From NCBI GenBank assembly GCA_964558305.1, contig CAZLCE010000006.1, positions 3,231 to 67,230 on the forward strand: a stretch of DNA of 64,000 nucleotides, read 5' to 3'. Both the position numbers and the translations under genes were made by a program. Source of the DNA: an uncultured Candidatus Bathyarchaeia archaeon (GTDB lineage Archaea > Thermoproteota > Bathyarchaeia > Bathyarchaeales > Bathycorpusculaceae). Below are positions 4,060 through 44,074 of this stretch, piece after piece. How positions within the stretch are numbered: the stretch's first letter is position 1; each line of letters begins with the position of its first letter. The notes under the pieces are model-generated. The model was not told the DNA's origin. It did not search any database and worked only from the letters and a program-made list of their open reading frames with translations.

Positions 4060-4073
4060 AGTTATGCGCCTTT

Positions 4074-4484: not shown

Positions 4485-4637
4485 GCTTACTCACCATAGG
4501 AATGCAAATATCGTGTAAGTATTTATTTTTACGCTCTCAAACAAGATTTTAACCTTGTCAAAATTATGCGAAGCAATGTTTGAGTAGACAACTTTAAATT
4601 ATATTTCAAAATATAAAATGTAAGGTGTTGAAACATA

Positions 4638-16799: not shown

Positions 16800-16802
16800 A
16801 CA

Positions 16803-18206: not shown

Positions 18207-18220
18207 TTTTCCATTTTTCT

Positions 18221-18736: not shown

Positions 18737-18821
18737 TATCTTTCTTGTTTTACTTTGGAAAGAGCAAATATAAACTTTTGAAGCCTTTTGCAGTCTTAAT
18801 TATGCTTTTTGTATCGCAAGA

Positions 18822-28275: not shown

Positions 28276-28284
28276 AAACCTCAC

Positions 28285-29730
28285 TTGGTCAGGAAAACTC
28301 TCCAGCTATTGTCTAAAGACGAAGTTCAAACAATCCATGCAAGTTCTCTTAAGGTGCTGGAAGAGGTCGGCGTTCAAATAGACAATGAAAACGCGTTAAA
28401 GTTATTGGCTGATGCAGGGGCAAACGTGGATTACAAAGAGAAACTGGTTTATATTCCCGAGTCGCTGGTTCAGGAAGCTTTGGAAAAGGTTCCATCAGAG
28501 TTTAGGCTTTATGATTTTGAACATAAACAGGAACTTTTGTTCGCTGGCGATAATGTTTACTTTAATCCTGGCTCAACAGCCCTCTACATATTAGATGGGC
28601 AGAGCATGGAGATGAGACGTCCAACCTCAAAAGACTTGACTGATTTTGTTAGGTTAACAGACGCTCTTCAGCACGTTCATGCTCAGAGCACTGCCATGGT
28701 TATCAGCGACGTACCCGACTCCGTGGTAGATCGGTTCCGCTTCTATCTAATACTCAAGAATTCAGCGAAACCAATCATTGCTGGCGCCTTTACAATAGAA
28801 GGTCTTTATGACATGAAACGCATGCTTGAAATAGTTGTCGGCGGAGAGGAGGCTTTAAGGAAAAAACCGTGTTTATTAATGGATGTGTGTCCATCACCGC
28901 CGTTGAAATGGAGTAAAATAACCTCTCAAAACTTGATAGATTCGGCTAAATTTAGCATACCTACCGAAATAATACCTGCGCCGCAATTAGGGTCAACGGC
29001 GCCTGCAACACTTGCTGGGCTGCTTGTGCAGCACAACGCTGAATTTCTATCGGGTCTTGTTATGTCTCAACTCGTGAATGCTGGGTTGCCAATTGTTTAC
29101 AGTGGTTCACCCTCTTTGATGGACATGAGATATGGGACCGGATGCGTCGGCAACATAGAGGTTGCCATGCTCTCGGCAGCGTACTCTCAAATAGCAAAAT
29201 TCTATGGTATCCCCTCAGGCGCATATTTGGGCATAAGCGAAACAAAGCTAGTCGACGCACAAACTGGGCTTGAATCCGCCATCGGATTAGTCATCGGGAC
29301 GCTGGCGGGCATCAACTGCATCACAGGTCCTGGAATGTTGGGTTTTGAAAACTGCCAGAGCTTTGAAAAATTGGTCATCGACAACGAAATCTGCGGAATG
29401 GCATTACGATTGATAAGAGATATTACGTTTAATGATGAAACTCTTGCATTTGACTTAATCAAGAAAGTGGGTCCAGGCGGACATTTTCTGTCTGAAAAGC
29501 ACACTCTTAAGTGGTTTCAGATTGAGGAGTATTTGCCTTCTTCGGTGATAGATAAGACAAGTAAATCACGTTGGGAATGCAGTGAGGCAAAGGATGCATT
29601 GAGCAGAGCCAAAGCCTCTGCAGATAAAATATTAGAGGAACATCATCCGAAGCCCTTGCCTTCTGATGTCGAGAAAGAACTAGATTCCTTTATATCTGAA
29701 ATCCTTAAACAAGCAGCAAAAACTTTGTGA
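28285..29730 (+). CDS. MttB-superfamily (trimethylamine methyltransferase-like) substrate:corrinoid methyltransferase, non-pyrrolysine type (paralog 1)
   Basis: 481 aa with a TTG start 10 nt after the upstream stop. LSKDEVQTIHASSLKVLEEVGVQI..ALKLLADAGANVD matches the MttB-family N-terminus. The frame is uninterrupted, with no in-frame TAG. Confidence 0.85.
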   Translation: MVRKTLQLLSKDEVQTIHASSLKVLEEVGVQIDNENALKLLADAGANVDYKEKLVYIPESLVQEALEKVPSEFRLYDFEHKQELLFAGDNVYFNPGSTALYILDGQSMEMRRPTSKDLTDFVRLTDALQHVHAQSTAMVISDVPDSVVDRFRFYLILKNSAKPIIAGAFTIEGLYDMKRMLEIVVGGEEALRKKPCLLMDVCPSPPLKWSKITSQNLIDSAKFSIPTEIIPAPQLGSTAPATLAGLLVQHNAEFLSGLVMSQLVNAGLPIVYSGSPSLMDMRYGTGCVGNIEVAMLSAAYSQIAKFYGIPSGAYLGISETKLVDAQTGLESAIGLVIGTLAGINCITGPGMLGFENCQSFEKLVIDNEICGMALRLIRDITFNDETLAFDLIKKVGPGGHFLSEKHTLKWFQIEEYLPSSVIDKTSKSRWECSEAKDALSRAKASADKILEEHHPKPLPSDVEKELDSFISEILKQAAKTL

Positions 29731-29734
29731 GAAA

Positions 29735-31624
29735 GTGCATATGTCCCTCAAAAAATTGATAACTCTCATGTTTGAACCTGACGGAATAAAGTCAAAATTC
29801 AGAAAAGACACCACAATACTCTGCGCTCTGAAGGAAGCGGGCTTGAAAATAAGGTCCGAATGTGGTGGCAGAGGAGTTTGCGGTAAATGCAAGATAATCG
29901 TTCAAAACGCCCTAAGCTTCAGCGCGGTCACCAACGCAGAAAGAGAACGTCTGTCTGCTTCTGAATTAAAGTCTGGGTATAGGCTGGCTTGTGAATGTTC
30001 AGTTTTGAAGGACGCTAAAATCTTCATACCCGAAGAAAGCCGCGCAATAACTAGAAAACTACTCATAGAAGGAACCGAAAGACCTGTCAAAGTAAAACCA
30101 ACAATTCGCAAACTATATGTAAAGATACCGAAACCTTCCTTAAGCGACATTCGCTCAGATGTCCAGCGGCTCCAGGATTCTTTAAAGGACATTTACAAAA
30201 TTGAAATAACTGAAATTGACCATACACTTTTGAAAAAGTTGCCACGAATTCTTCGCAACGCAAACTGGAAAGTCACGGTTACAATTTGGGATGAAAAGGA
30301 AATAATTTCTGTGGAACCTGGCGACACGGTAAAAAAGTCCTATGGAGTAGCCATCGACATTGGAACATCAAAAATAATTTGCTATCTTTCCGATCTGACA
30401 AATGGAGAGCTTATTGGCACAGGATCTGTGGAAAATCCCCAAACGATGTATGGCGAAGACGTAATTTCTAGAATTGCTTATGCTTCACAGTCAGATGATT
30501 CGCTAAAGAAATTGCAAAAACTTGTCATCGACGGTGTGAACGCCACACTCTTGGAAGCTTCTCAAAAATCTAGACTTAGCTTGCAGAACGTTTACGAGAT
30601 AACAGTGGTTGGAAACACGGCAATGCATCACATTTTCCTAGGTATTCAACCTAAGTATCTCGGCTTGGCACCTTACGTTCCAGCCATAAGTGATCCGGTC
30701 ACTGTGAAAGCAAGGGATTTGTCGATTAAGGCGAATCCTTCAGCCAAAGTACACGTGCTTTCTGTTATCGCAGGTTTTGTAGGCGCAGATGCGGTCGCAG
30801 ACATCATTTCAACAGGAATCTATGAATCAGATAAACTTTCAATGATGGTTGACATAGGAACTAACACTGAAGTAGTATTAGGTGATAAGCATGGAATTGT
30901 GGCTTGCTCGTGCGCGTCTGGACCTGCCTTTGAGGGTGCGCACATAAAGTTTGGCATGAAGGCTGTAACTGGCGCTATAGAGAGACTGCAGATAAACCCT
31001 GAAAACTTCGAGGTAAGCTATCAAGCAATTGGAAACGTTAAACCAATGGGCTTGTGTGGTTCAGCGATAATTGACGCTGTTGCCAACCTATTGAAGTGCA
31101 AAGTAATTGATATGGATGGAAGATTTACAGATGCTCAAATCAAGTCTAGACTGAAAACTACGAATGAAACGAAGAGCTTTATCCTCGTTTCAAGGGAAGA
31201 GGGAGCAACACGCGACATCACGATTACACAGAAAGACATCAGGGAAGTTCAGTTGGCTAAGGCTGCCATTTACACAGGATGCTACATTCTCATGAAAAGA
31301 AAGAACATAAAACCCTCCGACATCAAAAAATTCTATGTAGCTGGAGCCTTCGGCAATTACATAAATCTTGAAAATGCAAAACTAATCGGCATGCTGCCGG
31401 ACATCCCCACAAAAATTATAACTTTTGTTGGAAATGCCGCTGGAGCAGGTGCGAGAATGGCTCTGATTTCGAAGGCTCAGCGACAGATAGCAGCTTCTAT
31501 CAGTCGGAAAGTAGATTACGTTGAACTCGCTTTGGATCTTGATTTTCAAAGGGAGTTTGCTTTGGCTACGTGCTTTCCGCACAGAGATTTGGACAGGTTT
31601 CCATGTGTCGAAAACCTCTTCTAA
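29735..31624 (+). CDS. Reductive activator of corrinoid proteins, RACo-type ([2Fe-2S] ferredoxin domain + ASKHA ATPase, DUF4445)
   Basis: 629 aa. N-terminal plant-type ferredoxin motif SECGGRGVCGKCKI..LACE, and ASKHA phosphate motifs GVAIDIGTSK and MVDIGTNTE. The start is GTG 29735 or ATG 29741. Confidence 0.85.
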   Translation: MHMSLKKLITLMFEPDGIKSKFRKDTTILCALKEAGLKIRSECGGRGVCGKCKIIVQNALSFSAVTNAERERLSASELKSGYRLACECSVLKDAKIFIPEESRAITRKLLIEGTERPVKVKPTIRKLYVKIPKPSLSDIRSDVQRLQDSLKDIYKIEITEIDHTLLKKLPRILRNANWKVTVTIWDEKEIISVEPGDTVKKSYGVAIDIGTSKIICYLSDLTNGELIGTGSVENPQTMYGEDVISRIAYASQSDDSLKKLQKLVIDGVNATLLEASQKSRLSLQNVYEITVVGNTAMHHIFLGIQPKYLGLAPYVPAISDPVTVKARDLSIKANPSAKVHVLSVIAGFVGADAVADIISTGIYESDKLSMMVDIGTNTEVVLGDKHGIVACSCASGPAFEGAHIKFGMKAVTGAIERLQINPENFEVSYQAIGNVKPMGLCGSAIIDAVANLLKCKVIDMDGRFTDAQIKSRLKTTNETKSFILVSREEGATRDITITQKDIREVQLAKAAIYTGCYILMKRKNIKPSDIKKFYVAGAFGNYINLENAKLIGMLPDIPTKIITFVGNAAGAGARMALISKAQRQIAASISRKVDYVELALDLDFQREFALATCFPHRDLDRFPCVENLF

Positions 31625-33072
31625 GGCGCCAAGGCTTTGGTTGCTGTTTTTAATATTTCTTCAAGTTGCTTCTTTACATTTTCATCTAAAGATGGAGGTT
31701 CGTGTTCTACTAGGATTTTCTTAACCTTCTCTCGTGCAACTTCCACTATACTTTTACTGCCCATTTTCTCCCATTGGGACCGTGAGGCTCTATTGGCGAG
31801 TTTGGGAAAGAAGTATTCATCGCGAAAGTGCTGAAGGGTATGTTTTTGTTGGAGAAAATTTGTCGACTCTCTAGCAACTTTTATTATGACGTCTACTGCA
31901 AGCGTTTCCTCATCAAAGTCTATGCCCCTGACTGCTCTGAATATCATTCCGAAGATTTCATCATCAATAACCAATTGCTCATAACTTACGGTAATGCCAC
32001 CTTCAATAGATCCAGCGCCCGACAGCGCATTGGCTCCCGAGAGTGCAGGTAAAAGACCGTTTAAGGCTTTTTCAAAAGCAGCCTGTTCGTCTAGCATTTT
32101 AGAATCGGTGTCTAGTCCGTAGACGTCTGAAGGCAAATCGTAGTATTTTGCAAGTTGTACGCATCCCACGGACATTATTGTCGCTTCAATTCCATCGCAA
32201 GCTTGTCCCGTCGACATGTCTAGAGGTATGCATCTTGGGGAGTATTCAACGGGATTGCCAGGGTTTAGAAGCTGTACGATTACTATTCCGGCTAACATTT
32301 CCACGTTTTGCTGAACTAAGGTTCCAGCTAATGTGACTGGGCTGGCTACTCCAGCAAGAGGGCAAGGTAACACAGCAATAGGTAAGTTATGCTTGGCTGC
32401 TCTGGCCATTATTCTTGTAACTTCATTTGAGAATTGTAGTGGGCTCGTTGGTGAAGCGCTGCAAGTTACTATTGGACGTTTTCTCAGCTCTTCCTCTCCA
32501 ACAAGGGTCTCAAGCATTTTAATTATGTATCGGTAACTGTTATCGTCGAACGGGGTTGCATCAAAATTTTTGCCAGTATTCCTAATTATCGCTTCAACAG
32601 CGTAAATATCTCTCAAACGCTCTGGCACATCACTTGGGTAGACAATCATGGTTTGACTGTGAATGTTTGGGAGAAAATCCACGATTTTCGTCAAGTTCTC
32701 AACATCTTTTCTAGTGGAAGGTCGCACTGCCCCTGAATCGATGTCAATCACATTGGCTGCACCGCCCACAGGATGAGTGTAGATTTTTCCGTCTCCAAGT
32801 TCAATGTTATGCTTTGATTCTCTAGCGTACAACGTTACATGTTTGGGTGCCTTTCTGACGCATTCCTCGACCAAACTGGGCGACATTTTAGCCCTTTTAT
32901 TGGTGAAGTCAACGTTCATTCCGTTATCAGCCAAAAACTTTAGAAAATCATTATCATGAATCAAGACGCCGACTTCTTCCAAGATTTTCAGGCTGGAAGC
33001 ATGTATGTTCTCGATTTGATTTCGAGTTAGAAATTCTAGCTTCAATTTTATCACTAACGTCTTTTTCCTCAT
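31621..33072 (-). CDS. MttB-superfamily substrate:corrinoid methyltransferase, non-pyrrolysine type (paralog 2)
   Basis: 483 aa. LTRNQIENIHASSLKILEEVGVLI..FLKFLADNGMNVD. Clearly homologous to paralog 1 but divergent. No in-frame TAG. Confidence 0.85.
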   Translation of the reverse strand: MRKKTLVIKLKLEFLTRNQIENIHASSLKILEEVGVLIHDNDFLKFLADNGMNVDFTNKRAKMSPSLVEECVRKAPKHVTLYARESKHNIELGDGKIYTHPVGGAANVIDIDSGAVRPSTRKDVENLTKIVDFLPNIHSQTMIVYPSDVPERLRDIYAVEAIIRNTGKNFDATPFDDNSYRYIIKMLETLVGEEELRKRPIVTCSASPTSPLQFSNEVTRIMARAAKHNLPIAVLPCPLAGVASPVTLAGTLVQQNVEMLAGIVIVQLLNPGNPVEYSPRCIPLDMSTGQACDGIEATIMSVGCVQLAKYYDLPSDVYGLDTDSKMLDEQAAFEKALNGLLPALSGANALSGAGSIEGGITVSYEQLVIDDEIFGMIFRAVRGIDFDEETLAVDVIIKVARESTNFLQQKHTLQHFRDEYFFPKLANRASRSQWEKMGSKSIVEVAREKVKKILVEHEPPSLDENVKKQLEEILKTATKALAP

Positions 33073-33107
33073 AGCCTAATGAATAGTGTAATCTGTTAGT
33101 TTAAGCT

Positions 33108-33120
33108 GAAAATATTTAAA
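33108..33120 (+). promoter_or_regulatory. Putative BRE/TATA element GAAAATATTTAAA in the MttB2 / corrinoid-protein divergent intergenic region
   Basis: Exact 13-mer match to 26567-26579. It lies between the divergent starts 33072 (-) and 33180 (+). Confidence 0.35.
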
Positions 33121-33143
33121 TTTTTTATGCGATCCCATGGAAT

Positions 33144-33153
33144 AAGTTTAAAT
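33144..33153 (+). promoter_or_regulatory. Putative TATA element AAGTTTAAAT upstream of the corrinoid-protein gene
   Basis: It ends 27 nt before GTG 33180. The same 10-mer occurs at 41734-41743 upstream of the SBP gene. Confidence 0.35.
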
Positions 33154-33179
33154 TTCATAACCAAGTAAGCAGAAGTTCG

Positions 33180-33842
33180 GTGAAGCATCTGATGAGTGCA
33201 TTAACTTCAACCTTAAAAGAGCAACTTCTGACTTTTGACGCGGACAAGTTTGTTGGAACTATAAAAAAACTAATCGACGAAGGCCTCAGTCCAATTGAAG
33301 TAGTTAACGCTTTAACTCAAGTGTTGAAAGAAATAGGGAAAAAATTTGAAAGTGGCGAACTGTTTCTGGTGCATCTTGTTGCGGCTGGTGATTTGGCTAG
33401 AAGAGCCACCACAGAAGTTTTGGAGCCGCTTCTAAAAAAGAGCAGTGGAGAAAGAAAGACGTTGGGGAAAGTTGTAATTGGGACAGTTGCAGGGGACATA
33501 CATGATATTGGCAAGAACATTGTTGCGATGCTGCTCTTCACAGCTGGTTTTGAAGTTTATGATCTGGGAAAAGATGTTTCAACCGAAGAGTTTGTAAAGA
33601 AAACAAAGGAAGTCAACCCTGACCTCGTTGCTATGTCTGCTCTTTTGACCACTACCCTTCCAGCTCAACGAGAAGTAGTCCAAGCCTTGACTAAATCTGG
33701 TCTGCGCGATAAAGTAAAGATTCTCGTTGGAGGAGCCCCAACCACCGGCGATTGGGCTAAAGAGATTGGCGCGGATGGCCACGGTGCAGACGCCATAGAC
33801 GCAGTAAAGGTTGCAAAAAAACTGTTGGGAGTAAGCGATTAA
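33180..33842 (+). CDS. Cobalamin-binding corrinoid protein (MtbC/MttC/MtgC-like)
   Basis: 220 aa. N-terminal helical cap domain, then the B12-binding signatures D-x-H-x-x-G (GDIHDIGKN), S-x-L (MSALLTT) and G-G (LVGGAP). The start may be ATG 33192. Confidence 0.9.
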   Translation: MKHLMSALTSTLKEQLLTFDADKFVGTIKKLIDEGLSPIEVVNALTQVLKEIGKKFESGELFLVHLVAAGDLARRATTEVLEPLLKKSSGERKTLGKVVIGTVAGDIHDIGKNIVAMLLFTAGFEVYDLGKDVSTEEFVKKTKEVNPDLVAMSALLTTTLPAQREVVQALTKSGLRDKVKILVGGAPTTGDWAKEIGADGHGADAIDAVKVAKKLLGVSD

Positions 33843-34756
33843 GCTATTTTAAAAATTGGGTGTGAAGGCGAAGGCATTTTACCTTTTTCTATCAGAAGCT
33901 GAGCAAAAGCTGCATTCACCATTGCGACGGCTGGAAAAACATAAGGTGCCCCCTCTATTGGTCCATAAAGTATGAAATCAGCTCCAGCAGCAAGCGTTAT
34001 GGTGTCGGCTACTGCTGCACATGGTTTTACAGCTTGCAAACCCATTTTGGTCTTTAATCCTCTCCATGTCCCTATAGCGTTGTGAGCGCCGCACCCCGTG
34101 GGGTATCCCAACTCATTTTTGAGGTCTAGAATCGCTTTGAACGCTGAGCCTAACGTTGGCACATCTAATACACACGCGTCTAAGAGTATCTTTTCAACTC
34201 CGCTCTGAGTGGCTAAGGGTAGAAGCTGCTTTATAGCTTCGACTCGACCCGCCGCGGTCATGTTTTTACTGTTATACGCCAATAACACAGCAGCCTTGAA
34301 CTTTGTTTCTTTGATTTTTTCAAATTCTACGGTTTTTGATTCGGGGTTAAGCGAATTGTAGATGCACTTCTCCTGAATTCCTACCTCCCTGGCGTAGTCT
34401 GCTGCAGCGATTCTGATTTCCGCTGAAGGAGCATCCAGAAGTATAGGCGTTTCTGTGACTGAAGTTACGAAATCTATCAATCGGCTTACCCATCTCTTAG
34501 AAGATAAAACAACATCCAACATGCAAGGCAATCCTGTCTTGTCAGAGAATTCCTCCTGAACTTTTATCAGCCTTTCAACTTCATTACGGTTATAATTGCC
34601 TGTTTCTTCGTTGAAATCTAAGTTTCTCTGTCTATAGTAAAAAATCGACCCTATAAGCACAGTGGGGTTGTCGCCACGCATCCCACCGATCGATACTTTT
34701 CCTACCGTGAATTTTTTCTGTTCAGATGAGGTTTGCTCCATCGTGATAAGCCTCAA
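33839..34756 (-). CDS. mtrH: MtrH-family methyltransferase (methyl-corrinoid:tetrahydromethanopterin/pterin methyltransferase)
   Basis: 305 aa. VGKVSIGGMRGDNPTVLIGSIFY and the overall length match Mtr subunit H homologs. No other mtr subunit genes are adjacent. Confidence 0.8.
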   Translation of the reverse strand: MRLITMEQTSSEQKKFTVGKVSIGGMRGDNPTVLIGSIFYYRQRNLDFNEETGNYNRNEVERLIKVQEEFSDKTGLPCMLDVVLSSKRWVSRLIDFVTSVTETPILLDAPSAEIRIAAADYAREVGIQEKCIYNSLNPESKTVEFEKIKETKFKAAVLLAYNSKNMTAAGRVEAIKQLLPLATQSGVEKILLDACVLDVPTLGSAFKAILDLKNELGYPTGCGAHNAIGTWRGLKTKMGLQAVKPCAAVADTITLAAGADFILYGPIEGAPYVFPAVAMVNAAFAQLLIEKGKMPSPSHPIFKIA

Positions 34757-34886
34757 TAGAGATTGGCTGTTTGGAAGTTAAACCTAACTTTTTCTTTTCG
34801 GATTTATTATGCTTTATCTTTTTTGTTTATGCTCTGGATCGATGGATCCGTTATGGAGAGTAAGTTTTAAGTGTAAAATGCCTTAA

Positions 34887-36053
34887 ATGGAGCTCGGGAT
34901 AAATGTGAAGATAATTGTGTTGGGTTGTGGCAACATAGGGTCAGTGGCTGCTAAAGACTTGGCAGAAAACTTGCCATCCGCAGAAATAGTCGTGAGCGAC
35001 GTTAATAAGAGCCGAGCCAAAGAGGTTGCGTCAAAAATTGGTAAAGGCAACGTTTCTTGGATCCAAACAGACGCATCCAATCATCATGAACTTGTAAACA
35101 CCATAAAAAAATTCGACTTAGCCGTGGGAAGCCTGCCCGGAATGATGGGTTATAAAGCGTGTAAAGCCTCTGTCTCGGCAAAGGTGGACATGGTAGACGT
35201 TTCCTACATGCCCGAAGATGTAATGACATTGAACAAAGCCGCTTTAAAGGCTAAAGTATGCATCGTCCCAGACTGCGGAATGAGTCCTGGATTAGGCAGC
35301 ATATTGGCTGGTCATGCAGTTAGTAAACTCGACCAAATTGAGAGTATCCACATGCTAAATGGTGGACTCCCAGAAAAGCCAATTCCACCATTAGGTTACG
35401 TGATAACATGGTCTGTGAAGGATCTCATAGATATGTACTCTAGGAAAGTGAGCATAGTCAAAGGGGGCAAGGTGATTCAAGTGGAAGCTATGAGTGGGCT
35501 TGAAGAAATAGATTTTCCAAGAGTCGGAAAACTGGAGGCTTTTTACACTGATGGACTGAGAACTATGCTTCATACAGTGAAGGGAGTCAAAGACATGTGG
35601 GAAAAATCGCTTAGATACCCAGGGCATGTTGAAAAAATAAAGTTGCTGAAGACGCTTGGATTCTTTGATGAAAGTCTTGTAAAAATTGGAAGCTTGAACG
35701 TTTCTCCACGAGAAGTAACTGCTAAACTGCTCGAAAGTAAGTTGAAACGATCTGATGTCCCCGACATTGTGGCTATGCGTATTGTGGTTAGCGGAACAAA
35801 AAAAGACGAACGGATCACGTATACTTATCATGCAATAGATCGTTACGACAAGAAACACAAAGTCACAGCCATGGCAAGAACCACAGCATATACAACTTCA
35901 ATCGTAGCTCAACTGCTGGCAAAGAAAATCATAAAAGAAAAGGGTGTTTTGCCACCCGAGAAAATTGGAATGAACGAAAAACTCTACAATAAGCTCATGG
36001 GTGAAATGAAAAAACGAAAAATCATAGTTAAAGAGAATAAGAAAATTCACTAA
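34887..36053 (+). CDS. Saccharopine-dehydrogenase-family NAD(P) oxidoreductase (substrate unknown)
   Basis: 388 aa with the Rossmann motif IIVLGCGNIGSVAAKDL. A TATA-like AAGTTTTAAG at 34862-34871 sits only about 20 nt before ATG 34887, so the GTG at 34908 (VKIIVLGCG) may be the real start. Confidence 0.8.
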   Translation: MELGINVKIIVLGCGNIGSVAAKDLAENLPSAEIVVSDVNKSRAKEVASKIGKGNVSWIQTDASNHHELVNTIKKFDLAVGSLPGMMGYKACKASVSAKVDMVDVSYMPEDVMTLNKAALKAKVCIVPDCGMSPGLGSILAGHAVSKLDQIESIHMLNGGLPEKPIPPLGYVITWSVKDLIDMYSRKVSIVKGGKVIQVEAMSGLEEIDFPRVGKLEAFYTDGLRTMLHTVKGVKDMWEKSLRYPGHVEKIKLLKTLGFFDESLVKIGSLNVSPREVTAKLLESKLKRSDVPDIVAMRIVVSGTKKDERITYTYHAIDRYDKKHKVTAMARTTAYTTSIVAQLLAKKIIKEKGVLPPEKIGMNEKLYNKLMGEMKKRKIIVKENKKIH

Positions 36054-36094
36054 AAACTCCAATTTTTCCATGAAGGAACTAATAAGGTGTGGTC

Positions 36095-36928
36095 ATGGAG
36101 AAACTGATCATCACAGTTGCTCCCACTGGTTCTGTTCCTCGTAAAAAAGACACGCCTTACCTGCCAATAAGTCCAGATGAAATTGCTGAAACAGCCTATC
36201 TTTGCGAGCAAGAGGGCGCATCAATTATTCACATTCACTGCCGTGATGCCAATGAGGAACCTACATCAGATTATGCTATTTTCAAGGAAACCGTGGACAA
36301 AGTTCGGAACCGTTCAAAGCTGATAATTATGACATCAACAAGTGGCATGGCAGGTAAAACAGATGAAGAACGAGCTCAGCCACTAAAGACAAAACCAGAG
36401 ATGGCAAGCCTCACGACGGGTTCACTAAACTTTGCTGGGCGCAAACCATCAGTTGTATATGTAAACACTTGGGAGACGATAACATTTCTCGCTAAGAGAA
36501 TGCTTGAGGCGGACATTAAGCCAGAGATTGAAGCCTTCGATGTAGGTTTCATTCAACAAGGCATAAAGCTCATTGAACAAGGGCTAATCAAACCGCCTGC
36601 CCATTTTCAGTTGGTTATGGGTGTTGACGGTGGTATTCCTGCCACTTCAGATAACTTGCTACACATGTGTCGTCAACTTCCGCTCAGCGCTACATTCTGT
36701 GTGGCTGGCATAGGTAGGTGGCAATTGACTATGACTGCATTGGCAATAATTATGGGTGGGCATGTGAGAGTTGGACTTGAAGACAATATTTTCTACGTTA
36801 AGGGTAAATTGGCTCCAAACGAAGAATTTGTGGCTAGAGTACGGCGCATTGCGAAGGAGCTTCAACGCGAAATAGCTACACCCGAAGAGGCGCGGAAGAT
36901 TTTAGGATTGCAAATAAAACCACGCTAA
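36095..36928 (+). CDS. BKACE-family enzyme (3-keto-5-aminohexanoate cleavage enzyme-like, DUF849)
   Basis: MEKLIITVAPTGS..ISPDEIAETAYLCEQEGASIIHIHCRD (Zn ligands H-x-H) is typical of beta-keto acid cleavage enzymes. The ATG at 36095 is preferred over the track's GTG at 36089 because AAGGTG lies 8 nt upstream. Confidence 0.85.
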   Translation: MEKLIITVAPTGSVPRKKDTPYLPISPDEIAETAYLCEQEGASIIHIHCRDANEEPTSDYAIFKETVDKVRNRSKLIIMTSTSGMAGKTDEERAQPLKTKPEMASLTTGSLNFAGRKPSVVYVNTWETITFLAKRMLEADIKPEIEAFDVGFIQQGIKLIEQGLIKPPAHFQLVMGVDGGIPATSDNLLHMCRQLPLSATFCVAGIGRWQLTMTALAIIMGGHVRVGLEDNIFYVKGKLAPNEEFVARVRRIAKELQREIATPEEARKILGLQIKPR

Positions 36929-36950: not shown

Positions 36951-37949
36951 CTACTTTATTCTGTGGCATGCCACGTAATGTTCTTCTCCCACTTCGATAA
37001 GTTCTGGCTCTTCCTTTCTGCAAACTTCCTCGGCATTTGGGCATCTAGTGTGAAATCTACAGCCAGGAGGCGGATTTACAGGGCTTGGAATTTCTCCTTT
37101 AATTGTTAGTTTTATGCGTCGTGATTTTGGATCAGGTACAGGCACAGCAGATATGAGCGCTTTAGTGTAAGAGTGCAAGGGTTCATAAACAATATCCTCA
37201 GATGTTCCCATTTCCATTATTTTACCGAGGTACATTATGGCTATTCTATGGCACATGTGACGAGCCGTGGCTAGGTCATGAGTTATGTATAAAATCGAAA
37301 CGTTGAATTTCTCCACTAACTCTAAAAAGAGATTCAGTATTTCCGCTCTTATTGACACATCGAGCATTGATATTGGCTCGTCTGCAACTACGAATTCGGG
37401 ATTAAGTATGAAGGTTCTTGCTACGACAACTCTCTGTCTTTGTCCTCCGCTCAGCTCGTGGGGGTATCTGAGTAAAAATTCGTTTGGAGGAACTACCTTC
37501 ACGTCTTCAAGAGTTTTTATCACTCTTTCTTCTACTTCCTTCTCGCTGCTCAAAACCTTTTGAATGCGTAAGCCTTCTGCAATGATGTCCATGACGGTCT
37601 TTCTTGGGTTTAGGGATTCGTAAGGGTCTTGGAAAACTGTCTGCATTTTGCGCCGCAGTTGTTTCTGTTTCATTTGCTTTCTAGTGAGTTTAGTGATATC
37701 TTCGCCCTTGAAAAAAACTTTCCCACTTGTTGGGTCAATTATTTTAAGGACCAATCTTCCAGTGGTTGTCTTTCCGCTGCCACTTTCTCCAGCTAAACCA
37801 AAAATTTCTCTTGTTTTTATATCAAAGCTTACATCATCTACGGCTCGAACGAACGATTCTTTCTTTGAAAGTAAAGCTTGGAAAAAGCCTCTTCTAACGG
37901 GAAACCACTTTTTTAAGTTTAACACTTCTACTACTTTATTTTCAGACAT
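36951..37949 (-). CDS. oppF: Peptide/nickel (Opp/Dpp-type) ABC transporter ATP-binding protein
   Basis: 332 aa. Walker A GESGSGKTT, signature LSGGQRQR, Walker B VVADEP, and a C-terminal oligopeptide-transporter domain with PPPGCRFHTRCP. Confidence 0.9.
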   Translation of the reverse strand: MSENKVVEVLNLKKWFPVRRGFFQALLSKKESFVRAVDDVSFDIKTREIFGLAGESGSGKTTTGRLVLKIIDPTSGKVFFKGEDITKLTRKQMKQKQLRRKMQTVFQDPYESLNPRKTVMDIIAEGLRIQKVLSSEKEVEERVIKTLEDVKVVPPNEFLLRYPHELSGGQRQRVVVARTFILNPEFVVADEPISMLDVSIRAEILNLFLELVEKFNVSILYITHDLATARHMCHRIAIMYLGKIMEMGTSEDIVYEPLHSYTKALISAVPVPDPKSRRIKLTIKGEIPSPVNPPPGCRFHTRCPNAEEVCRKEEPELIEVGEEHYVACHRIK

Positions 37950-37969
37950 TTCGATTCTTCCATCTCAAA

Positions 37970-38971
37970 TCAACTATTCCCATACAAGTGGCATGCGACA
38001 AGATGCTCTTTTTCCTTCATCTTCGTTACAGCTGGCTCCTGTTCCTTGCAGATGGTTTTTGCGTAGGTGCATCTGGGATGGAATCTGCAACCTTTAGGCG
38101 GATCTAAGAGGTCTGGTGGAGACCCGGGGATCGAGTTCATTCGTGTTCTGGTTGATTTTATGTTTGGAAAAGCTTGAATTAACCCTTGCGTATAGGGATG
38201 CAGCGGTTCTTCAAATAAGTCTGAAACATCTGCGTATTCAACTATTTTTCCTGCATACATTATAGCAACTTTATCGCAAGTGTCAGCTATAATCGATAGG
38301 TCATGTGTTATCAAGATCACAGCCAAGTTCAGTTTTTTTCTCAAATCTTCCATTATACTTAGTACCTGAGCCTGAACAATAACGTCTAGTGCTGTTCCCG
38401 GTTCATCGGCGATTAAGAGTTCTGGATTACATGCTAAAGCCATTGCTATAAGCCCGCGTTGCCTCATGCCGCCGCTTAGCTCGTGAGGATAACTTTTTAT
38501 CCGTTTTCTTTCCATTCCTACTAATTCCAATAGTTCTTCGGCTCTGCTCGCGGCTTCTCTTCTGTTAAGTTTTGATTCATGAGCCAAAATAGCTTCTACG
38601 ATCTGATCTCCAAGGCTGTAAAGCGGGTCAAGCGCATTCATAGCGCCTTGAAACACTAAAGATATTTTCTTCCACCGAATTTTCCTCATCTCTTTTTCGG
38701 AAATTCTTGCAATGTCAAGGTCTTTTAAGAGGATCTTGCCGTCGGTTATTTTGCCTCGAGATGGAAGAATTTTCATGATAGATAACGCTACAGTAGTTTT
38801 GCCGCAGCCAGATTCACCTGCCAAACCCATGGCTTGTCCTTCTTTAACCTGAAAGTCGACGCCATCCACTGCTTTGACGGGGCCTCTTTTCGTGAAATAG
38901 TATGTTCTTAGGTTTTCGACGTTTAGAAGAGACATGTTCAAAAGTTGCCTTCTTGTAATGTATGTAAACAC
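37970..38971 (-). CDS. oppD: Peptide/nickel (Opp/Dpp-type) ABC transporter ATP-binding protein
   Basis: 333 aa. GESGCGKTT, LSGGMRQR, LIADEP, PKGCRFHPRC. The start may be the internal M (MSLLNVENL) at 38935. Confidence 0.9.
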   Translation of the reverse strand: MFTYITRRQLLNMSLLNVENLRTYYFTKRGPVKAVDGVDFQVKEGQAMGLAGESGCGKTTVALSIMKILPSRGKITDGKILLKDLDIARISEKEMRKIRWKKISLVFQGAMNALDPLYSLGDQIVEAILAHESKLNRREAASRAEELLELVGMERKRIKSYPHELSGGMRQRGLIAMALACNPELLIADEPGTALDVIVQAQVLSIMEDLRKKLNLAVILITHDLSIIADTCDKVAIMYAGKIVEYADVSDLFEEPLHPYTQGLIQAFPNIKSTRTRMNSIPGSPPDLLDPPKGCRFHPRCTYAKTICKEQEPAVTKMKEKEHLVACHLYGNS

Positions 38972-39073
38972 TTAGCTTGGGAGTTCATCCTTGATATAAA
39001 TCTTTTGAAAGACGTGAGGTATATTGTTTTGAAGAACCAATAAGGAATGCGTCAAAAAACGGTTAGATTAAAT

Positions 39074-40645
39074 TTAGATTCTTTCTCGAAGTTTTGGATT
39101 AAATACTTCATCCAAAGCATATCCGATGAAAATAAATGATATAGAAATGGCTGCTATGCATAAACCAGGCGGAAGGACCCACCACCATTTTTGAACGCCT
39201 CCGGGTGATATTAAAGCGTCATGAAGTATTCTTCCCCACGTCATGACTTCAAAGGGATAAAGTCCTAAAAAGCTTAGGTATGCCTCTGAATAAATTGCTG
39301 CGGGTGCTGACATGGCTAATGTAACATATACCAAATTCATAACATTTGGGGTTAGAACACTGAAGATGATGTAAAGCTCGCTTCCTCCAAGAATCCTTGA
39401 CGCATCGACAAAGGGTCTTTCCTTAAGGCTGAGAACCTGAGACCTCACTATTCTGGCGAACCCCATCCACCCGAGGAGAGAAATCATTACAATGATAATC
39501 CATAATGATGGCCCCGTGACTGCTACGAATACTAAGAGCAGGGGAAGCTCTGGTATTACAAGAAAGGTGTCAGTTATCCTCATCATTATTTCATCTATAA
39601 TTCCACCAAAATATCCTGAAACCATTCCGACGAACAAGCCTATAGTCGTGGATAGAAAGGCTCCGAGGAATCCCACAAGGAGGGATATTCTTGTTCCATA
39701 TAATAGCTGAGAAAATATGTCCCGTGCAAATTTGTCGGTTCCAAGTAGACCGAAGGTTTCGCCATAAAGTTTCAAGTCGAGGTCGTCTAAATAAACCGTG
39801 ACGTTCGATACATTTTCGCCAAACAGTGCTTCAACACCGAATGTGTAATTGGTCGGTTTAGAAAATACTTTTCTGTCTATATCCAAGATGTCAGAATCTA
39901 TAAGATTAAGATACCATGGTGGGGGGCCAGTCCTCATCGTTGGTTTGATCCATTTTCCAATGGGGTAGATTCCGCCTGTCGTTTTGAGGCCCTCAGCAGG
40001 GGACCATAGTGTTTTTGGTTCGCCCTCAGCCTGTTTGATGAAAACTGTAATGTTAAGGTCAGCTAGCTTAATAGTAATGTTTTGTGGGGCGTCAACCTTA
40101 ACATATATCTTTCCGACCCACTTGCTAGGCGGATTTGAATAGGGATAGGTGAATTCCTTAGCCAGAACCGCTTCTGCTTTCTCTTTTTGCGCAATTTCAT
40201 CTTGCCTTAAGCATATAGCAATGCAGCCTGGACCACTGCTGGGACTTCCCTCATTAGATAAATACTCTAGCGAAATGTATTGACTTGATGCGTTTGTTGT
40301 GAATCCCCACTGCTCCAACGAAACATTAGTCGAGAAGCTTGGGTCTTGAATAGGATTGACGTTTTCACTTAGATTTCCATAACCAGGCAGGTACCTAATC
40401 CATGAAGGGAGGGCGAGGGGACTAGCTGTTATTTCGGTAGGGATTGCTAAAGGGTCGTATGGCGTCAGCAAAGGCGCGGCAAGAGCTATTACAATGAATG
40501 CAGCAAGAATAGCGATGCCTAGTACTCCTCTTTTGCTTTGCATAATAATTCTTAAAACCTTGAGGAAATCTCTAAAGCGGGGTGCAATTTTTGATTTATA
40601 CGAAGCGGACATGGGTATCTCATCCATATTTAATTCGTGGATCAA
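39074..40645 (-). CDS. oppC: Opp/Dpp-type ABC transporter permease (OppC-like) with a large extracytoplasmic insertion after TM1
   Basis: 523 aa. It has TM1, then about 235 residues before the conserved LLGTDKFARDIFSQLLYGTRISL box, whereas I recall a much shorter segment in typical OppC/DppC. The start may be 40627 or 40612. Confidence 0.85.
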   Translation of the reverse strand: MIHELNMDEIPMSASYKSKIAPRFRDFLKVLRIIMQSKRGVLGIAILAAFIVIALAAPLLTPYDPLAIPTEITASPLALPSWIRYLPGYGNLSENVNPIQDPSFSTNVSLEQWGFTTNASSQYISLEYLSNEGSPSSGPGCIAICLRQDEIAQKEKAEAVLAKEFTYPYSNPPSKWVGKIYVKVDAPQNITIKLADLNITVFIKQAEGEPKTLWSPAEGLKTTGGIYPIGKWIKPTMRTGPPPWYLNLIDSDILDIDRKVFSKPTNYTFGVEALFGENVSNVTVYLDDLDLKLYGETFGLLGTDKFARDIFSQLLYGTRISLLVGFLGAFLSTTIGLFVGMVSGYFGGIIDEIMMRITDTFLVIPELPLLLVFVAVTGPSLWIIIVMISLLGWMGFARIVRSQVLSLKERPFVDASRILGGSELYIIFSVLTPNVMNLVYVTLAMSAPAAIYSEAYLSFLGLYPFEVMTWGRILHDALISPGGVQKWWWVLPPGLCIAAISISFIFIGYALDEVFNPKLRERI

Positions 40646-41624
40646 CAGCTCCGTAAATCATGTCAACTAAGAAATTGGCGGCAATGACGCAAAGACTCAC
40701 AATGTAAAAGATCGCTTGTAAAGCGGGGTAATCCCATTCTTCAATCGATGTCCAAATCCACATTCCTAATCCTGGATATGTGAAAATTGTTTCGGTGACT
40801 AACGCTCCTGAGAGGGTGAAGGCAAAGGCTATGGCTACTTGTGTTATTATTGGTAGCGACGCGTTTTTTAGTGCGTGTTTAAAAAGTATCTTAAAATTAC
40901 TTAGTCCTTTTGCTTTTAGGGTAATTAGATAGTCCTCACTTAAGACCTCCAGCATTGACGCCCTTGTCAAAAGAACATATCCTCCAATAGTGATTATTAC
41001 TAATGTCAAGGCTGGCAAGAAAAGATACTGCAAGCGAATCGCAAATTCTATTAGAAAATTATCGGGTTTGCCATGAATAGCCCACTCCGGGGGATATGAA
41101 TGACCTAATGGAAACCAGCCTAAGTTGTAGGAGAATATTAAGAGCAAAAGCATTCCTATCCAAAAAACCGGCAGTCCCTGCGTCACTACCGAAAACATTG
41201 AAAAAAAGGTGTCTGCAATTTTTCCTCTTTTGTAAGCCGCTACCACTCCAAGAATCAATCCCATTACAACAGCTATAACTTCTGCAGTGATGCACATTGA
41301 AAGGGTATTTGAAAGACGTGAAAACATTTCCTCGGATATAGCTTCTCCTGTGCGATAAGAATAACCAAACTGAAAAGTCAACAAATTCTGGAGATATTTC
41401 AAATATCTTACATATATCGGCTCCAATAGTCCAAAGCGTACTTTGAGTTCCTCAATTTGTCCAGGACGAAGTCTCTTTTCGGATGCTAACATTTCTACTG
41501 GGCTTCTAACCATAAAGATGGCGAAATTAATTGTAATTACAATAAAGACTAGGACGATGGAATAAACAGCTCTCTTAACAACATACCCTCGTAGACCCAT
41601 ACTTGCCCTCTCGCTTTTATTCAC
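40620..41624 (-). CDS. oppB: Opp/Dpp-type ABC transporter permease (OppB-like)
   Basis: 334 aa. YVVKRAVYSIVLVFIVITINF N-terminus, an EAA-like loop (LEVLSEDYLITLKAKGLS), and 6 TM segments. Confidence 0.9.
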   Translation of the reverse strand: MNKSERASMGLRGYVVKRAVYSIVLVFIVITINFAIFMVRSPVEMLASEKRLRPGQIEELKVRFGLLEPIYVRYLKYLQNLLTFQFGYSYRTGEAISEEMFSRLSNTLSMCITAEVIAVVMGLILGVVAAYKRGKIADTFFSMFSVVTQGLPVFWIGMLLLLIFSYNLGWFPLGHSYPPEWAIHGKPDNFLIEFAIRLQYLFLPALTLVIITIGGYVLLTRASMLEVLSEDYLITLKAKGLSNFKILFKHALKNASLPIITQVAIAFAFTLSGALVTETIFTYPGLGMWIWTSIEEWDYPALQAIFYIVSLCVIAANFLVDMIYGAVDPRIKYG

Positions 41625-41733
41625 GAGGCATTTATTTATGTTTTTTGCGTACGACGAAGTTCTCCATATAATTTATGATTCAAGTGCAAACATCAAAATT
41701 CTCTCTCTTAGCAGTGTAGAAGATATTTCCATA

Positions 41734-41743
41734 AAGTTTAAAT
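41734..41743 (+). promoter_or_regulatory. Putative TATA element AAGTTTAAAT upstream of the SBP-dockerin gene
   Basis: It lies about 46 nt before ATG 41789, with GAGAGGAGAG (SD-like) in between. It sits in the divergent oppB/oppA intergenic region. Confidence 0.35.
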
Positions 41744-41788
41744 CAACATTTAAAGCCTAGTGTAATAGCGAGAGGAGAGAGAATTAAA

Positions 41789-44074
41789 ATGGACATAAAT
41801 TCTAAAGGCTTCAAAAAGATGATAATGACCTCAGCATTGCTACTTCTGATGCTAGATTTAACTTTCGTTTCAGGTCAAGCTGGTGGAGGTTCTGGAGGAT
41901 ATGAAAAGTGGGGGCCAAGAACTAATTACTTACAGTGTATAATCTATACGAATTATGAGACTGAGGCTACGGCTTTTCGTAATGGGCTTATTGACATTAT
42001 GGATTGGCCTTTAGACTATGATACATATATGTCTATAAAAGATGATCCTGCCTTCATTAAAGAAACACTTACAATGTATGATTGCTATGACATCGATATA
42101 AACTGTTTAAGATGGCCAACAAGCGATTACCGCTTTAGACAAGCTATCGCTTATTTAATTGACTACTCAACGTTTTATACTAATATTTTGAGGGCTTTCG
42201 CTGGCGAGTTGATGGACAATATTATATGGTCGCAATGGGTCAAGTGGTATAATCCGGGTGCCCCGAAGTATTGGTATGATAATGCTACAGCCTTATCAAT
42301 ACTTGCTGAAGCAGGTTACCAAAATTGGGACGGCGATCCACAACTGGAATGGAAAGCGCCGAATAATACAATTTACCAATTGCCCAACTTGGAATTTTAT
42401 GCAAGAGAGGATGATCCTCTTCGAGCGGCTTTAGGAACGATGTTAAACGCACAGTTAAACGCTATAGGCATTCCCACAACTTTCTCAGTAGCATCACGTA
42501 ACATTTGTTGGAACCACGCATACAAATTTTATACCTATCACTTATATACAGCGGGAATGGGTCCATTCCCAGACCCGCAATTCTTGTATGACTACTATCA
42601 CAGTAAATATGCTACGCCAGACATCGCTTGGTGCATGAACAATGTGTTCTTCATGAACGATACTTACGATTATTGGGTTGAACAACTCAAGTTTGCAGCT
42701 AATGACACTACGGCAGTACAAGCATGCAAAAACGCTCAAGAAATATTTATGGACCAAATACCCCTAATCCCAGTTTACCATTCAGCCGGCAAAAAAGCTT
42801 ACAAAGCTACATATGGGCATCACACTGGTGAGGAGGCATACTGGGATATGCCTTGGAACGGCGTTGTAAACTCGATAATACCAACAGTAGATTCTGGCAT
42901 TAACGATTATTGGACCCTCTTGAATGCGCATCCTGGAAGCGTTCAGAAAGGCGGTGTATTACGATACGGATGGCTATCCGACGCAGATCATGTAAATCCC
43001 GTGACGGTATACTCTATCTGGGACTCTTACCTGCTGGAAGAGCTTTACAGCACAATGATTATGCGCGATCCTTTCACGGGAGCCAGAGTTCCATGGCTTG
43101 CAAAAGATTGGACTGTTGGAACATGGAATTATGGAGGAAAAAATGCAACAAAATTAACGATGCGCCTTCATGAAAACCTCAAATGGTCTGATGGTACACC
43201 ACTCAATTCAACTGACGTAGCATTCACCATGAAATACATGTATGATACTTCTTCACCTTCCTACTACCCCTACATGGAGATGATTGACGGCATAAATACA
43301 ACAACTCCACATATTGAAACGCCAGATGCCACCACAGTTGTCATCTACTATACTGTTGAATCAGTATGGGCTCTCGAATGGGCGGGAGATACACCAATAA
43401 TACCCAAGCATGTATGGGAAACAGTACCACCCAAACAATGCGACCAGAAAGGCGAATTTACAACGACAGGCAACCTAACATGCTCAGGACCATACCTAAT
43501 CGACAGTTACGTGAGAGGCGAATGGTGGCTCCTAAGAGCAAACCCCTACTTCTTTAGATATTCACCCCCACATGATCTATCCCTAACAGACATGGGAAGC
43601 CAAAAAACAATCGTTTGCCAAGGATACGGCTTAAACGTAACCTTGACCTGCGCAAATATCGGATACTTCACAGAATCAGCAACAATAGAAGTCTTTGCAA
43701 ACGGAACCTCTGCCGGCACTATGTCGGGAATAACAGTGACAACTGCAACACCATGTACAATAACGTTCACTTGGGACACTTCTGGCTTTGCTAAGGGCAA
43801 CTACAACATAAGCGCCCTTATTTGGCCTGTTCTAGGCGAAATAGACACTGCCGACAACAATTTCACTGATGTTTGGATTTCTGTCGCTATAGTTGGTGAT
43901 GTTAACGCTGATAAGAAGGTTGATATGGTAGACCTTTGGGAAGTTGCTAGGCATTTTGGCATTGACTATCCGGACCCAAGATACGTGCCCAACTTTGACA
44001 TAGACAACAACGGCAAAACAGACATGATAGACCTCTGGACAACAGCCAAAGAATACGGCAAAATAGACCCATAA
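41789..44074 (+). CDS. oppA: Family-5 (peptide/nickel) ABC substrate-binding protein fused to C-terminal CARDB-like and dockerin-like modules
   Basis: 761 aa. Signal/anchor MIMTSALLLLMLDLTFVSG. SBP_bac_5-like core about 550 aa. CARDB-like segment (NVTLTCANIGYF..FTWDTSGFAKGNYNISA..GEIDTADNNF). Two dockerin-type Ca-binding loops (DVNADKKVDMVD, DIDNNGKTDMID). Confidence 0.85.
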   Translation: MDINSKGFKKMIMTSALLLLMLDLTFVSGQAGGGSGGYEKWGPRTNYLQCIIYTNYETEATAFRNGLIDIMDWPLDYDTYMSIKDDPAFIKETLTMYDCYDIDINCLRWPTSDYRFRQAIAYLIDYSTFYTNILRAFAGELMDNIIWSQWVKWYNPGAPKYWYDNATALSILAEAGYQNWDGDPQLEWKAPNNTIYQLPNLEFYAREDDPLRAALGTMLNAQLNAIGIPTTFSVASRNICWNHAYKFYTYHLYTAGMGPFPDPQFLYDYYHSKYATPDIAWCMNNVFFMNDTYDYWVEQLKFAANDTTAVQACKNAQEIFMDQIPLIPVYHSAGKKAYKATYGHHTGEEAYWDMPWNGVVNSIIPTVDSGINDYWTLLNAHPGSVQKGGVLRYGWLSDADHVNPVTVYSIWDSYLLEELYSTMIMRDPFTGARVPWLAKDWTVGTWNYGGKNATKLTMRLHENLKWSDGTPLNSTDVAFTMKYMYDTSSPSYYPYMEMIDGINTTTPHIETPDATTVVIYYTVESVWALEWAGDTPIIPKHVWETVPPKQCDQKGEFTTTGNLTCSGPYLIDSYVRGEWWLLRANPYFFRYSPPHDLSLTDMGSQKTIVCQGYGLNVTLTCANIGYFTESATIEVFANGTSAGTMSGITVTTATPCTITFTWDTSGFAKGNYNISALIWPVLGEIDTADNNFTDVWISVAIVGDVNADKKVDMVDLWEVARHFGIDYPDPRYVPNFDIDNNGKTDMIDLWTTAKEYGKIDP

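Follow-up and report, generated by a model that had tools for sequence, protein, structure and literature searches.

What a dehydrogenase of the saccharopine-dehydrogenase fold and a beta-keto acid cleavage enzyme do together, and why their genes lie beside genes for corrinoid-dependent methyl transfer, is the question raised by a locus of an uncultured Bathyarchaeia archaeon. We analyzed 64,000 nucleotides (nt) of contig CAZLCE010000006.1 (assembly GCA_964558305.1, positions 3,231 to 67,230 of the forward strand), here called the window and numbered from its first letter, which belong to a 1.57-Mb metagenome-assembled genome (MAG) that is 97% complete. The best-matching sequencing run was a hot-spring metagenome, and relatives were found in sediment metagenomes. 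The two genes, abbreviated DH and BKACE, each occur in a single copy in the genome:

34887-36053, + strand: DH, a saccharopine-dehydrogenase-fold NAD(P)-dependent amine dehydrogenase of the L-lysine 6-dehydrogenase (LysDH; PH1688) type, 388 residues (Pfam and PDB match)
36095-36928, + strand: BKACE, a beta-keto acid cleavage enzyme from an archaeal subgroup distinct from both Kce and the 3-oxoadipate type, 277 residues (PF05853)

We tentatively propose, with a probability of about 0.45, that the pair is one transcription unit in a composite island, in which deamination and beta-keto-acid cleavage of a Kdd/Kce/Kat-like kind are connected to methyl transfer with DH as the hinge.

The two genes are on the same strand and separated by 41 nt, counted to the ATG at 36095, which is essentially the 35-40 nt given in the first-pass annotation, and the mtrH gene, rightly described there as directly adjacent, is divergent and located 130 nt upstream. 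The arrangement DH-then-BKACE, in the same order and strand and with gaps of 35-77 nt, was recovered from at least nine distinct Bathyarchaeia loci (the window, L001/L002/L111, L003, L110, L112/L115, L116, L121, L163, and L165), and order, strand and short gap were fixed in all nine loci that hold both genes. Sequence identity at these loci is 69-79% for DH (L163 and L165 left out) and 75-83% for BKACE. Because order, strand and gap recur across loci, the pairing is beyond chance within one sub-lineage, and the two genes are very probably co-transcribed as one unit. Among 251 sampled Bathyarchaeia species genomes, BKACE was identified in 86 and DH homologs in 133, with no adjacency of the two beyond the window's own genome; a broad co-occurrence of DH and BKACE is thereby ruled out, and the pair is thus limited to one sub-lineage that is mostly known from metagenome contigs. 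The other BKACEs in the 86 genomes are paralogs of at most 47% identity, often in tandem pairs, and the DH homologs in the 133 genomes show at most 59% identity. Tandem pairs of BKACE paralogs that are 35-40% identical to the window's protein were seen in unrelated contexts in many Bathyarchaeia (e.g., L019:9780-11493, L025:9775-11485, L020:9258-11551), and one BKACE frame (L023:6972-8300, genome G150) has 442 residues as compared to the usual 275-300, which may reflect an N-terminal fusion or a mis-called start. A saccharopine-dehydrogenase-fold partner for a BKACE had been expected to be unusual, and a literature search indeed found no publication naming both BKACE and saccharopine dehydrogenase.

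DH contains the Pfam domains Sacchrp_dh_NADP (PF03435, 63 bits) and Sacchrp_dh_C (PF16653, 163 bits). Its closest solved structure by a wide margin is PDB 3ABI (E = 3.5e-70, 40% identity across 349 residues), which is PH1688, the NAD-dependent L-lysine 6-dehydrogenase (EC 1.4.1.18) of Pyrococcus horikoshii, reportedly described by Yoneda et al. in 2010. Residues 4-381 align with PH1688, so that the homology is full-length, taking in the Rossmann domain as well as the catalytic domain, which is saccharopine-reductase-like, and the NAD-type Rossmann motif is recognizable from GxGxxG at residues 13-18 and Asp38 closing beta-2. Unlike PH1688, with which it shares this two-domain architecture, DH stands in an operon with BKACE and adjoins, or in other genomes lies within, MttB/MtrH operons, a context that is undescribed for LysDH. 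An identity as carboxyspermidine dehydrogenase or saccharopine reductase was rejected, as the matches to these proteins range from 1e-8 to 1e-16, as compared to 3.5e-70 for LysDH. LysDH-type enzymes convert a terminal epsilon-amine into an aldehyde, not a beta-amine into a ketone, and we know of no member of the DH family that oxidizes beta-hydroxy groups.

BKACE matches PF05853 (DUF849) with 327.6 bits, as compared to a gathering score of 24.8, over profile positions 1-274 of 274. An alternative GTG start at 36089 would extend the protein to 279 residues, but since the orthologs all start MEKLIITVAPTG, the true start is the ATG at 36095, which is preceded 6 nt upstream by a GGTG element resembling a ribosome-binding site. 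The TVAPTG and HIH Zn-ligand signatures named in the first-pass annotation are both present, the latter as IIHIHCRD. In an alignment with Kce, His48, His50, and Glu231 match the Zn ligands His46, His48, and Glu230, and Glu148, Arg227, Asp232, and Ser83 match the catalytic residues Glu143, Arg226, Asp231, and Ser82. These positions (H46, H48, S82, E143, R226, E230, and D231 in Kce) are invariant in an alignment of 114 BKACEs that includes all 14 members of the archaeal clade, and judged by this alignment the Zn and catalytic set of the window's enzyme is intact.

The substrate pocket differs from that of Kce. In the same alignment, Kce-type enzymes have E14, T16, D116/D117, F119, and P176, whereas among the 14 archaeal orthologs these positions are, with few or no exceptions, V14, R16, G116/R117, Y119, and D176, and the window's BKACE, with Val14, Arg16, Lys17, Gly116/Arg117, and Tyr119, lacks the Glu14 and Asp117 of Kce. 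The residues V/L14, R16, R117, and Y119, along with K17, S13, and S106, are common to the archaeal clade and to the Halomonas/Cupriavidus-type enzymes, for which the label of NCBIfam NF053568 is 3-oxoadipate:acetyl-CoA acetyltransferase (BKACE group G3, with a relative in PDB 3NO5), and the N-terminal TGS[VL]PRK motif is likewise shared. Four of the five residues typical of this group (Arg16, Lys17, Arg117, Tyr119, and Lys176) are present in BKACE, with Asp176 in place of the lysine in 14 of 14 archaeal sequences. The two types differ further in that their identity is just 39-45%, that positions 80/84 of BKACE are Met/Ser, and that the context of the window is not one of aromatic degradation; with the NF053568 model, BKACE scored 240 bits, under the cut-off of 350, as compared to 497 for Halomonas and 471 for Xanthobacteraceae. 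In the phylogenetic analysis, the archaeal sequences were monophyletic with a support of 1.0 and grouped with the 3-oxoadipate branch (0.887), not with Kce. Because basic residues replace the acidic ones of Kce, which probably bind the 5-amino group, the distal group of the beta-keto acid is predicted to be anionic, not cationic, and the pocket residues argue for a substrate with a distal carboxylate, resembling 3-oxoadipate and perhaps carrying an amine in addition. The archaeal clade is said to be almost missing from the BKACE family survey of 2014, which reportedly covered three archaeal genomes.

The first-pass annotation had recommended comparing the active site with the family subgroups, and had named as refuting its idea a canonical Kce combined with the complete lysine-fermentation gene set elsewhere in the genome; this case was not borne out. 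The outcome bears on the rival explanation that an ordinary lysine-fermentation Kce is encoded here and that its connection to methyl transfer is coincidental. Its best PDB match (2Y7D, 1e-60) and its best NCBIfam match are both Kce. However, it scored 340.3 bits with the NCBIfam Kce equivalog model, under the cut-off of 382, as compared to 451 bits for a true Kce from Syntrophomonadaceae (L032, motif TGAEVTRDD). The KamA family (TIGR00238) gave no match in the 97%-complete genome, with the control positive in 9 of 14 genomes; lysine 5,6-aminomutase alpha (PF09043) gave no match either, with a silent control, and Kdd was not searched for. The score under the cut-off, the replaced Glu14 and Asp117, the separate clade and the lack of KamA rule out canonical lysine fermentation, and an ordinary Kce is largely refuted and very improbable. 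A genuine Kce does occur about 7 kb from an MttB homolog and a corrinoid protein gene in two Syntrophomonadaceae MAGs (L032:562-10142 and L033:1564-11421), a bacterial co-location that may be coincidental.

The lower branch of (alternative) lysine fermentation is nevertheless among the closest known systems. This branch, Kdd/Kce/Kat, was reportedly described by Kreimeyer and colleagues in 2007 and by Bellinzoni and colleagues in 2011. In both, one neighborhood combines an NAD(P)-dependent amine dehydrogenase with a HemL-like beta-transaminase and a Zn-dependent BKACE, whose products are acetoacetate and an acyl-CoA, and the BKACE catalytic residues are identical. The aminotransferase partners of BKACE recall Kat because Kat is itself a HemL-like transaminase that acts on 3-aminobutyryl-CoA, the product of Kce (Perret 2011, PMC3149608). 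In contrast to the lysine pathway, the dehydrogenase of the window has a saccharopine-dehydrogenase/LysDH fold that is unrelated to Kdd, and the unit is set among Opp, amide hydrolase and corrinoid methyl-transfer genes in an archaeal host.

The surroundings of DH homologs point to methyl transfer. When all genes within 3.5 kb of 54 DH homologs were clustered, MttB and MtrH were the commonest neighbors, each at 12 listed loci (11 distinct ones, as L001 and L111 are one contig), and BKACE was a neighbor at 6 listed loci (5 distinct). In five species genomes from one Bathyarchaeia family (L145, L146, L147, L149, and L152), DH and MtrH share a strand and overlap by 20 nt, and where the contigs are long enough (L145, L149, and L152) MttB directly precedes DH at a distance of a few nt at most, forming a tight MttB-DH-MtrH operon. 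The sole annotated locus of this family (L145:6097-9568) is located amid housekeeping genes (PCNA, S19e); an HpaI-like aldolase gene follows just downstream. MttB-DH units were also identified in two further genomes and in L003/L165, and the DH genes linked to methyltransferases span at least two clades of the DH tree. Adjacency of DH and MttB outside the Bathyarchaeia was ruled out for the sample covered (none among 301 genomes of the phylum), and no publication naming both MttB and saccharopine dehydrogenase was found in the literature search. Because DH recurs inside MttB/MtrH operons, some link to methyl transfer is real, and because it is embedded in MttB-DH-MtrH operons elsewhere, DH probably oxidizes the amine demethylated by MttB or a close relative of it.

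The island itself spans positions 23756-44074, and includes, in addition to the pair, the following features:

23756-25066, - strand: HemL-like class-III aminotransferase (annotation; hemL model 474 bits, under the cut-off of 527)
25082-26503, - strand: M20 dipeptidase-like hydrolase (annotation)
26599-31624, + strand: operon of D-aminoacylase-like Amidohydro_3, MttB1, and RACo-type corrinoid activase (gaps of 9 and 4 nt)
31621-33072, - strand: MttB-family methyltransferase 2 (MttB2), uninterrupted and without pyrrolysine (PF06253, 354 bits; nearest PDB entry 7XCL, 264 bits)
33180-33842, + strand: corrinoid protein (B12-binding and B12-binding_2 domains)
33839-34756, - strand: MtrH-family methyl-corrinoid:pterin methyltransferase, MT2 (PF02007, 260 bits; NCBIfam NF002142, 311 bits, over the cut-off)
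34757-34886, no strand: divergent intergenic region of 130 nt between mtrH and DH (sequence)
36951-44074: Opp/Dpp-type ABC importer, with the OppF and OppD ATPases and the OppC and OppB permeases on the - strand and a family-5 binding protein on the + strand (annotation)

MttB, corrinoid protein, MT2 and activase are thus all encoded at 26599-34756 in frames without an in-frame UAG, as a non-pyrrolysine (non-Pyl) MttB system, and this set of MttB, corrinoid protein and MtrH genes is the only one in the genome. Non-Pyl MttB systems have been proposed to play a role in non-methanogenic archaeal methylotrophy (bioRxiv 10.1101/2023.11.21.568159). The described systems (MtgB/MtpB/MtcB/MtyB) share with the island MT1 (MttB), corrinoid protein, MT2 (MtrH-like) and a RACo-type activase, here beside the pair, but they contain neither a saccharopine-dehydrogenase-fold dehydrogenase nor a BKACE. 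MttB1 comes closest to MtgB, a methyltransferase for glycine betaine, and the Amidohydro_3-MttB1-RACo arrangement was also found in L001, L120, and L121. Elsewhere in the genome there are two further HemL-like paralogs, as well as CoA-transferase and thiolase homologs that could use acetoacetate. The DH ATG is preceded at a distance of about 20 nt by a TATA-like AAGTTTTAAG, and the genes for the corrinoid protein and OppA have a related element, AAGTTTAAAT, upstream. An exact 13-mer and an exact 10-mer common to other promoters of the island are missing upstream of DH, which rules out a shared regulatory motif for the DH promoter and leaves it with a generic TATA-like element only. The island ends with the binding-protein gene, and about 2.4 kb farther downstream a multi-PAS histidine kinase (46453-48531), a candidate sensor for the island, is encoded. 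Upstream of the island (15369-19844) there are genes for TldD/PmbA-type metallopeptidases, for a GNAT acetyltransferase and for a BtrH_N/DUF4872 protein, which fits a neighborhood for peptide or acyl-amine processing.

Outside the loci that carry the pair, orthologs of BKACE without DH have 72-83% identity to the window's protein and keep other company. A Bathyarchaeia contig (L164) has just AT3, M20, Amidohydro_3, and BKACE amid ribosomal-protein genes, without DH or methyltransferases, and in genome G067 the ortholog adjoins a GMC oxidoreductase, again without DH. In Thermoplasmata (L027, L029, and L031), BKACE follows right after OppD-OppF and stands beside two HemL-like aminotransferases and Amidohydro_3, while in a Thorarchaeote (L028) its neighbors are a TrmB-MEDS regulator and an aminotransferase of class I/II. 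HemL-like aminotransferases and Amidohydro_3 adjoin BKACE orthologs in L164, L110, L027, L029, and L031, and aminotransferases and the amidohydrolase are the steadiest BKACE partners. The earlier view of the dehydrogenase as the strict partner that makes the beta-keto acid is not borne out, as BKACE often occurs without DH and beside aminotransferases, and DH often occurs without BKACE. The occurrence of orthologs with 72-75% identity in other archaeal phyla (L027, L029, L030, and L031 in Thermoplasmata / 'Methanobacteriota', L028 in Thorarchaeota), in the Thermoplasmata fused into Opp operons, implies horizontal spread of the subgroup.

The loci can be arranged as a series that runs from one module to the other. 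L164 has Amidohydro_3-BKACE; in L110, which lacks methyl-transfer genes, Amidohydro_3-DH-BKACE share one strand, with a gap of about 38 nt; the window, L001, and L121 have Amidohydro_3-[MttB1-RACo, MttB2, corrinoid protein, MtrH]-DH-BKACE-Opp; and L120, where DH has 90% identity, has the same arrangement without BKACE and Opp. In L122 (DH 77%), DH is preceded by corrinoid protein and MtrH genes and BKACE is missing, and in L004 and L113 (DH 68-69%) DH stands alone among genes that also flank L122. The amidohydrolase and DH are the hinge genes, as each shares operons with members of both modules, and it is this interleaving at the operon level, of the hydrolase with MttB1 and of DH with BKACE, that constitutes our main argument for modules that cooperate and do not merely abut. 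In L119 (983-3928), where DH has 67% identity and the Opp operon is 92-95% identical to that of the window, the BKACE slot between DH and Opp is filled by a thiolase of the archaeal type, on the minus strand, and by a CoA-transferase of two subunits, of which the B subunit is weakly PcaJ/ScoB-like. Acting together, a CoA-transferase and a thiolase convert a beta-keto acid with the same net result as BKACE, and they are possibly a non-orthologous replacement of the BKACE step, although they could equally assimilate acetoacetate. In the otherwise syntenic island of L121, an ornithine-cyclodeaminase/mu-crystallin-family gene (3664-4659; archaeal alanine-dehydrogenase or ketimine-reductase-like) was observed after RACo, which hints at cyclic imine or imino-acid intermediates, and in L163 (3763-5908) two radical-SAM genes of the PTO1314 family lie between Amidohydro_3 and MttB.

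Under the cooperative reading that we prefer, the Opp system would take up an amide-linked amino compound, which the D-aminoacylase-like and M20 hydrolases would deacylate, and, if the compound is methylated, MttB, the corrinoid protein and MtrH would pass its methyl groups to a pterin C1 carrier. As a LysDH-type enzyme, DH would remove the terminal amine, converting the C-N bond to an aldehyde or iminium, and the HemL-like (Kat-like) transaminase would remove the beta-amine, either on the free acid or on a CoA ester. BKACE would then use acetyl-CoA to split a beta-keto acid with a distal carboxylate into acetoacetate and a shortened acyl-CoA. The route would do without aminomutases and would be a non-orthologous analog of the lower, Kdd/Kce/Kat half of lysine fermentation. 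We infer its direction, the order of its steps and the class of its substrate from the gene identities, the conservation of the pair, the absence of KamA, the residue patterns and the neighborhood statistics. A candidate that is economical in its chemistry, but to which we assign a low probability, starts from beta-lysine or N-epsilon-acetyl-beta-lysine and passes through 3-aminoadipate semialdehyde, 3-aminoadipate, and 3-oxoadipate to succinyl-CoA and acetoacetate; it would engage every enzyme class present, but would need an additional aldehyde oxidoreductase. A bolder version, which we regard as improbable, holds that DH is an unrecognized fourth catalytic component of one class of archaeal MttB systems (MttB-DH-MtrH), which would oxidatively cleave the C-N bond of the demethylated amine. 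It would here be fused to a dicarboxylic beta-keto acid route independent of B12-aminomutases, in which a lysine-isomer-type or beta-amino compound would be converted to a dicarboxylic beta-keto acid and further, by the archaeal BKACE subgroup, to succinyl- or malonyl-CoA-type products and acetoacetate; beta-lysine or N-epsilon-acetyl-beta-lysine, converted via 3-aminoadipate to 3-oxoadipate, would be an example.

Several observations weigh against cooperation as we propose it. Since LysDH-type enzymes oxidize terminal amines to aldehydes, DH may not itself form the beta-keto group. BKACE orthologs occur without DH in L164, L009, and L027-L031, and DH orthologs of 68-90% identity occur without BKACE in L120, L122, L004, L113, and L107; because each gene occurs without the other, their adjacency could reflect modules that accrete around a resident DH. 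The subgroup of BKACE was assigned from NCBIfam models and our own alignment, Asp176 departs from the Lys of the 3-oxoadipate type, and the arginine and lysine residues might contact CoA instead of the substrate. Finally, the only metatranscriptomes found, three small ones from the source study, contained no match to the gene's sequence, and the runs that did match are DNA only.

These points lead to the strongest alternative, in which independent modules are juxtaposed: DH would belong with methyl transfer and cleave the demethylated amine, BKACE would belong with Opp, the hydrolases and the HemL-like transaminase, and the two would share a promoter, not a pathway. It is favored by the MttB-DH-MtrH operons without BKACE (L145-L149, L152), by the methyltransferase genes that abut DH without BKACE in L120 and L122, and by BKACE occurring with AT3, M20, and Amidohydro_3 but without DH or methyltransferases in L164 and likewise in Thermoplasmata, while the flanking genes common to L004, L113, and L122 suggest that DH is an old resident beside which the others were inserted. 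We nevertheless consider juxtaposition somewhat unlikely, given the order, strand and short gap fixed in every locus with both genes, the one-strand Amidohydro_3-DH-BKACE arrangement of L110, where methyltransferase genes are missing, and the operon-level interleaving. The proposal of the first-pass annotation, that the pair oxidizes and cleaves a carnitine-like or methyl-lysine-derived cation and so frees betaine or methylamine for demethylation by MttB, seems doubtful to a clearly greater degree. The pair does adjoin the only MttB/corrinoid protein/MtrH set of the genome, MttB1 is closest to MtgB, the LysDH-like nature of DH makes N-epsilon-methyl-lysine conceivable, and the route from carnitine via dehydrocarnitine to betainyl-CoA through a BKACE is established (PMC12482172). 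The carnitine dehydrogenase and dehydrocarnitine cleavage enzyme (G5) of that route resemble the pair in that a dehydrogenase acts before a BKACE and in that betaine demethylation could conceivably be connected, but the G5 partner has a fold of the 3-hydroxyacyl-CoA-dehydrogenase type, of which no gene is annotated in the island, and the pocket of BKACE, as compared with the Kce and 3-oxoadipate types, argues against a cation. Its basic set of Arg16, Lys17, Arg117, and Tyr119, like that of the 3-oxoadipate type and without the acidic residues of Kce, speaks against a cationic beta-keto acid that would release betaine, as do the lack of MttB near the BKACE orthologs in Thermoplasmata, Thorarchaeota, and L164, the lack of known beta-hydroxy oxidation in the DH family and a betainyl-CoA hydrolase for which no candidate was identified.

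The logic of a BKACE combined with a dehydrogenase and the non-Pyl MttB systems were already known; new are the partner of the saccharopine-dehydrogenase/LysDH fold, the hybrid active site of a BKACE clade that crosses archaeal phyla, and the recurrent embedding of DH in MttB/MtrH operons. The non-pyrrolysine MttB superfamily is very large, and only a handful of its substrates are known. DH could help to show what role MttB plays in uncultured archaea such as Bathyarchaeia, Asgard and their relatives: recurring as it does within MttB/MtrH operons, it should act on the compound that MttB leaves after demethylation, or on a close relative of that compound, so that screening this one soluble NAD-dependent enzyme could reveal the substrates of orphan archaeal MttB proteins. 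If the modules are merely juxtaposed, the locus would be a well-documented case of operon accretion around a resident gene. The archaeal BKACE clade, with its hybrid active site and a dehydrogenase partner of unrelated fold, adds to the known ways for beta-amino or beta-keto acids to enter central metabolism without B12 or radical-SAM aminomutases. If DH is a fourth component of the MttB system fused to such a route, the island would allow archaea to scavenge methylated and beta-amino solutes or amines derived from peptides.

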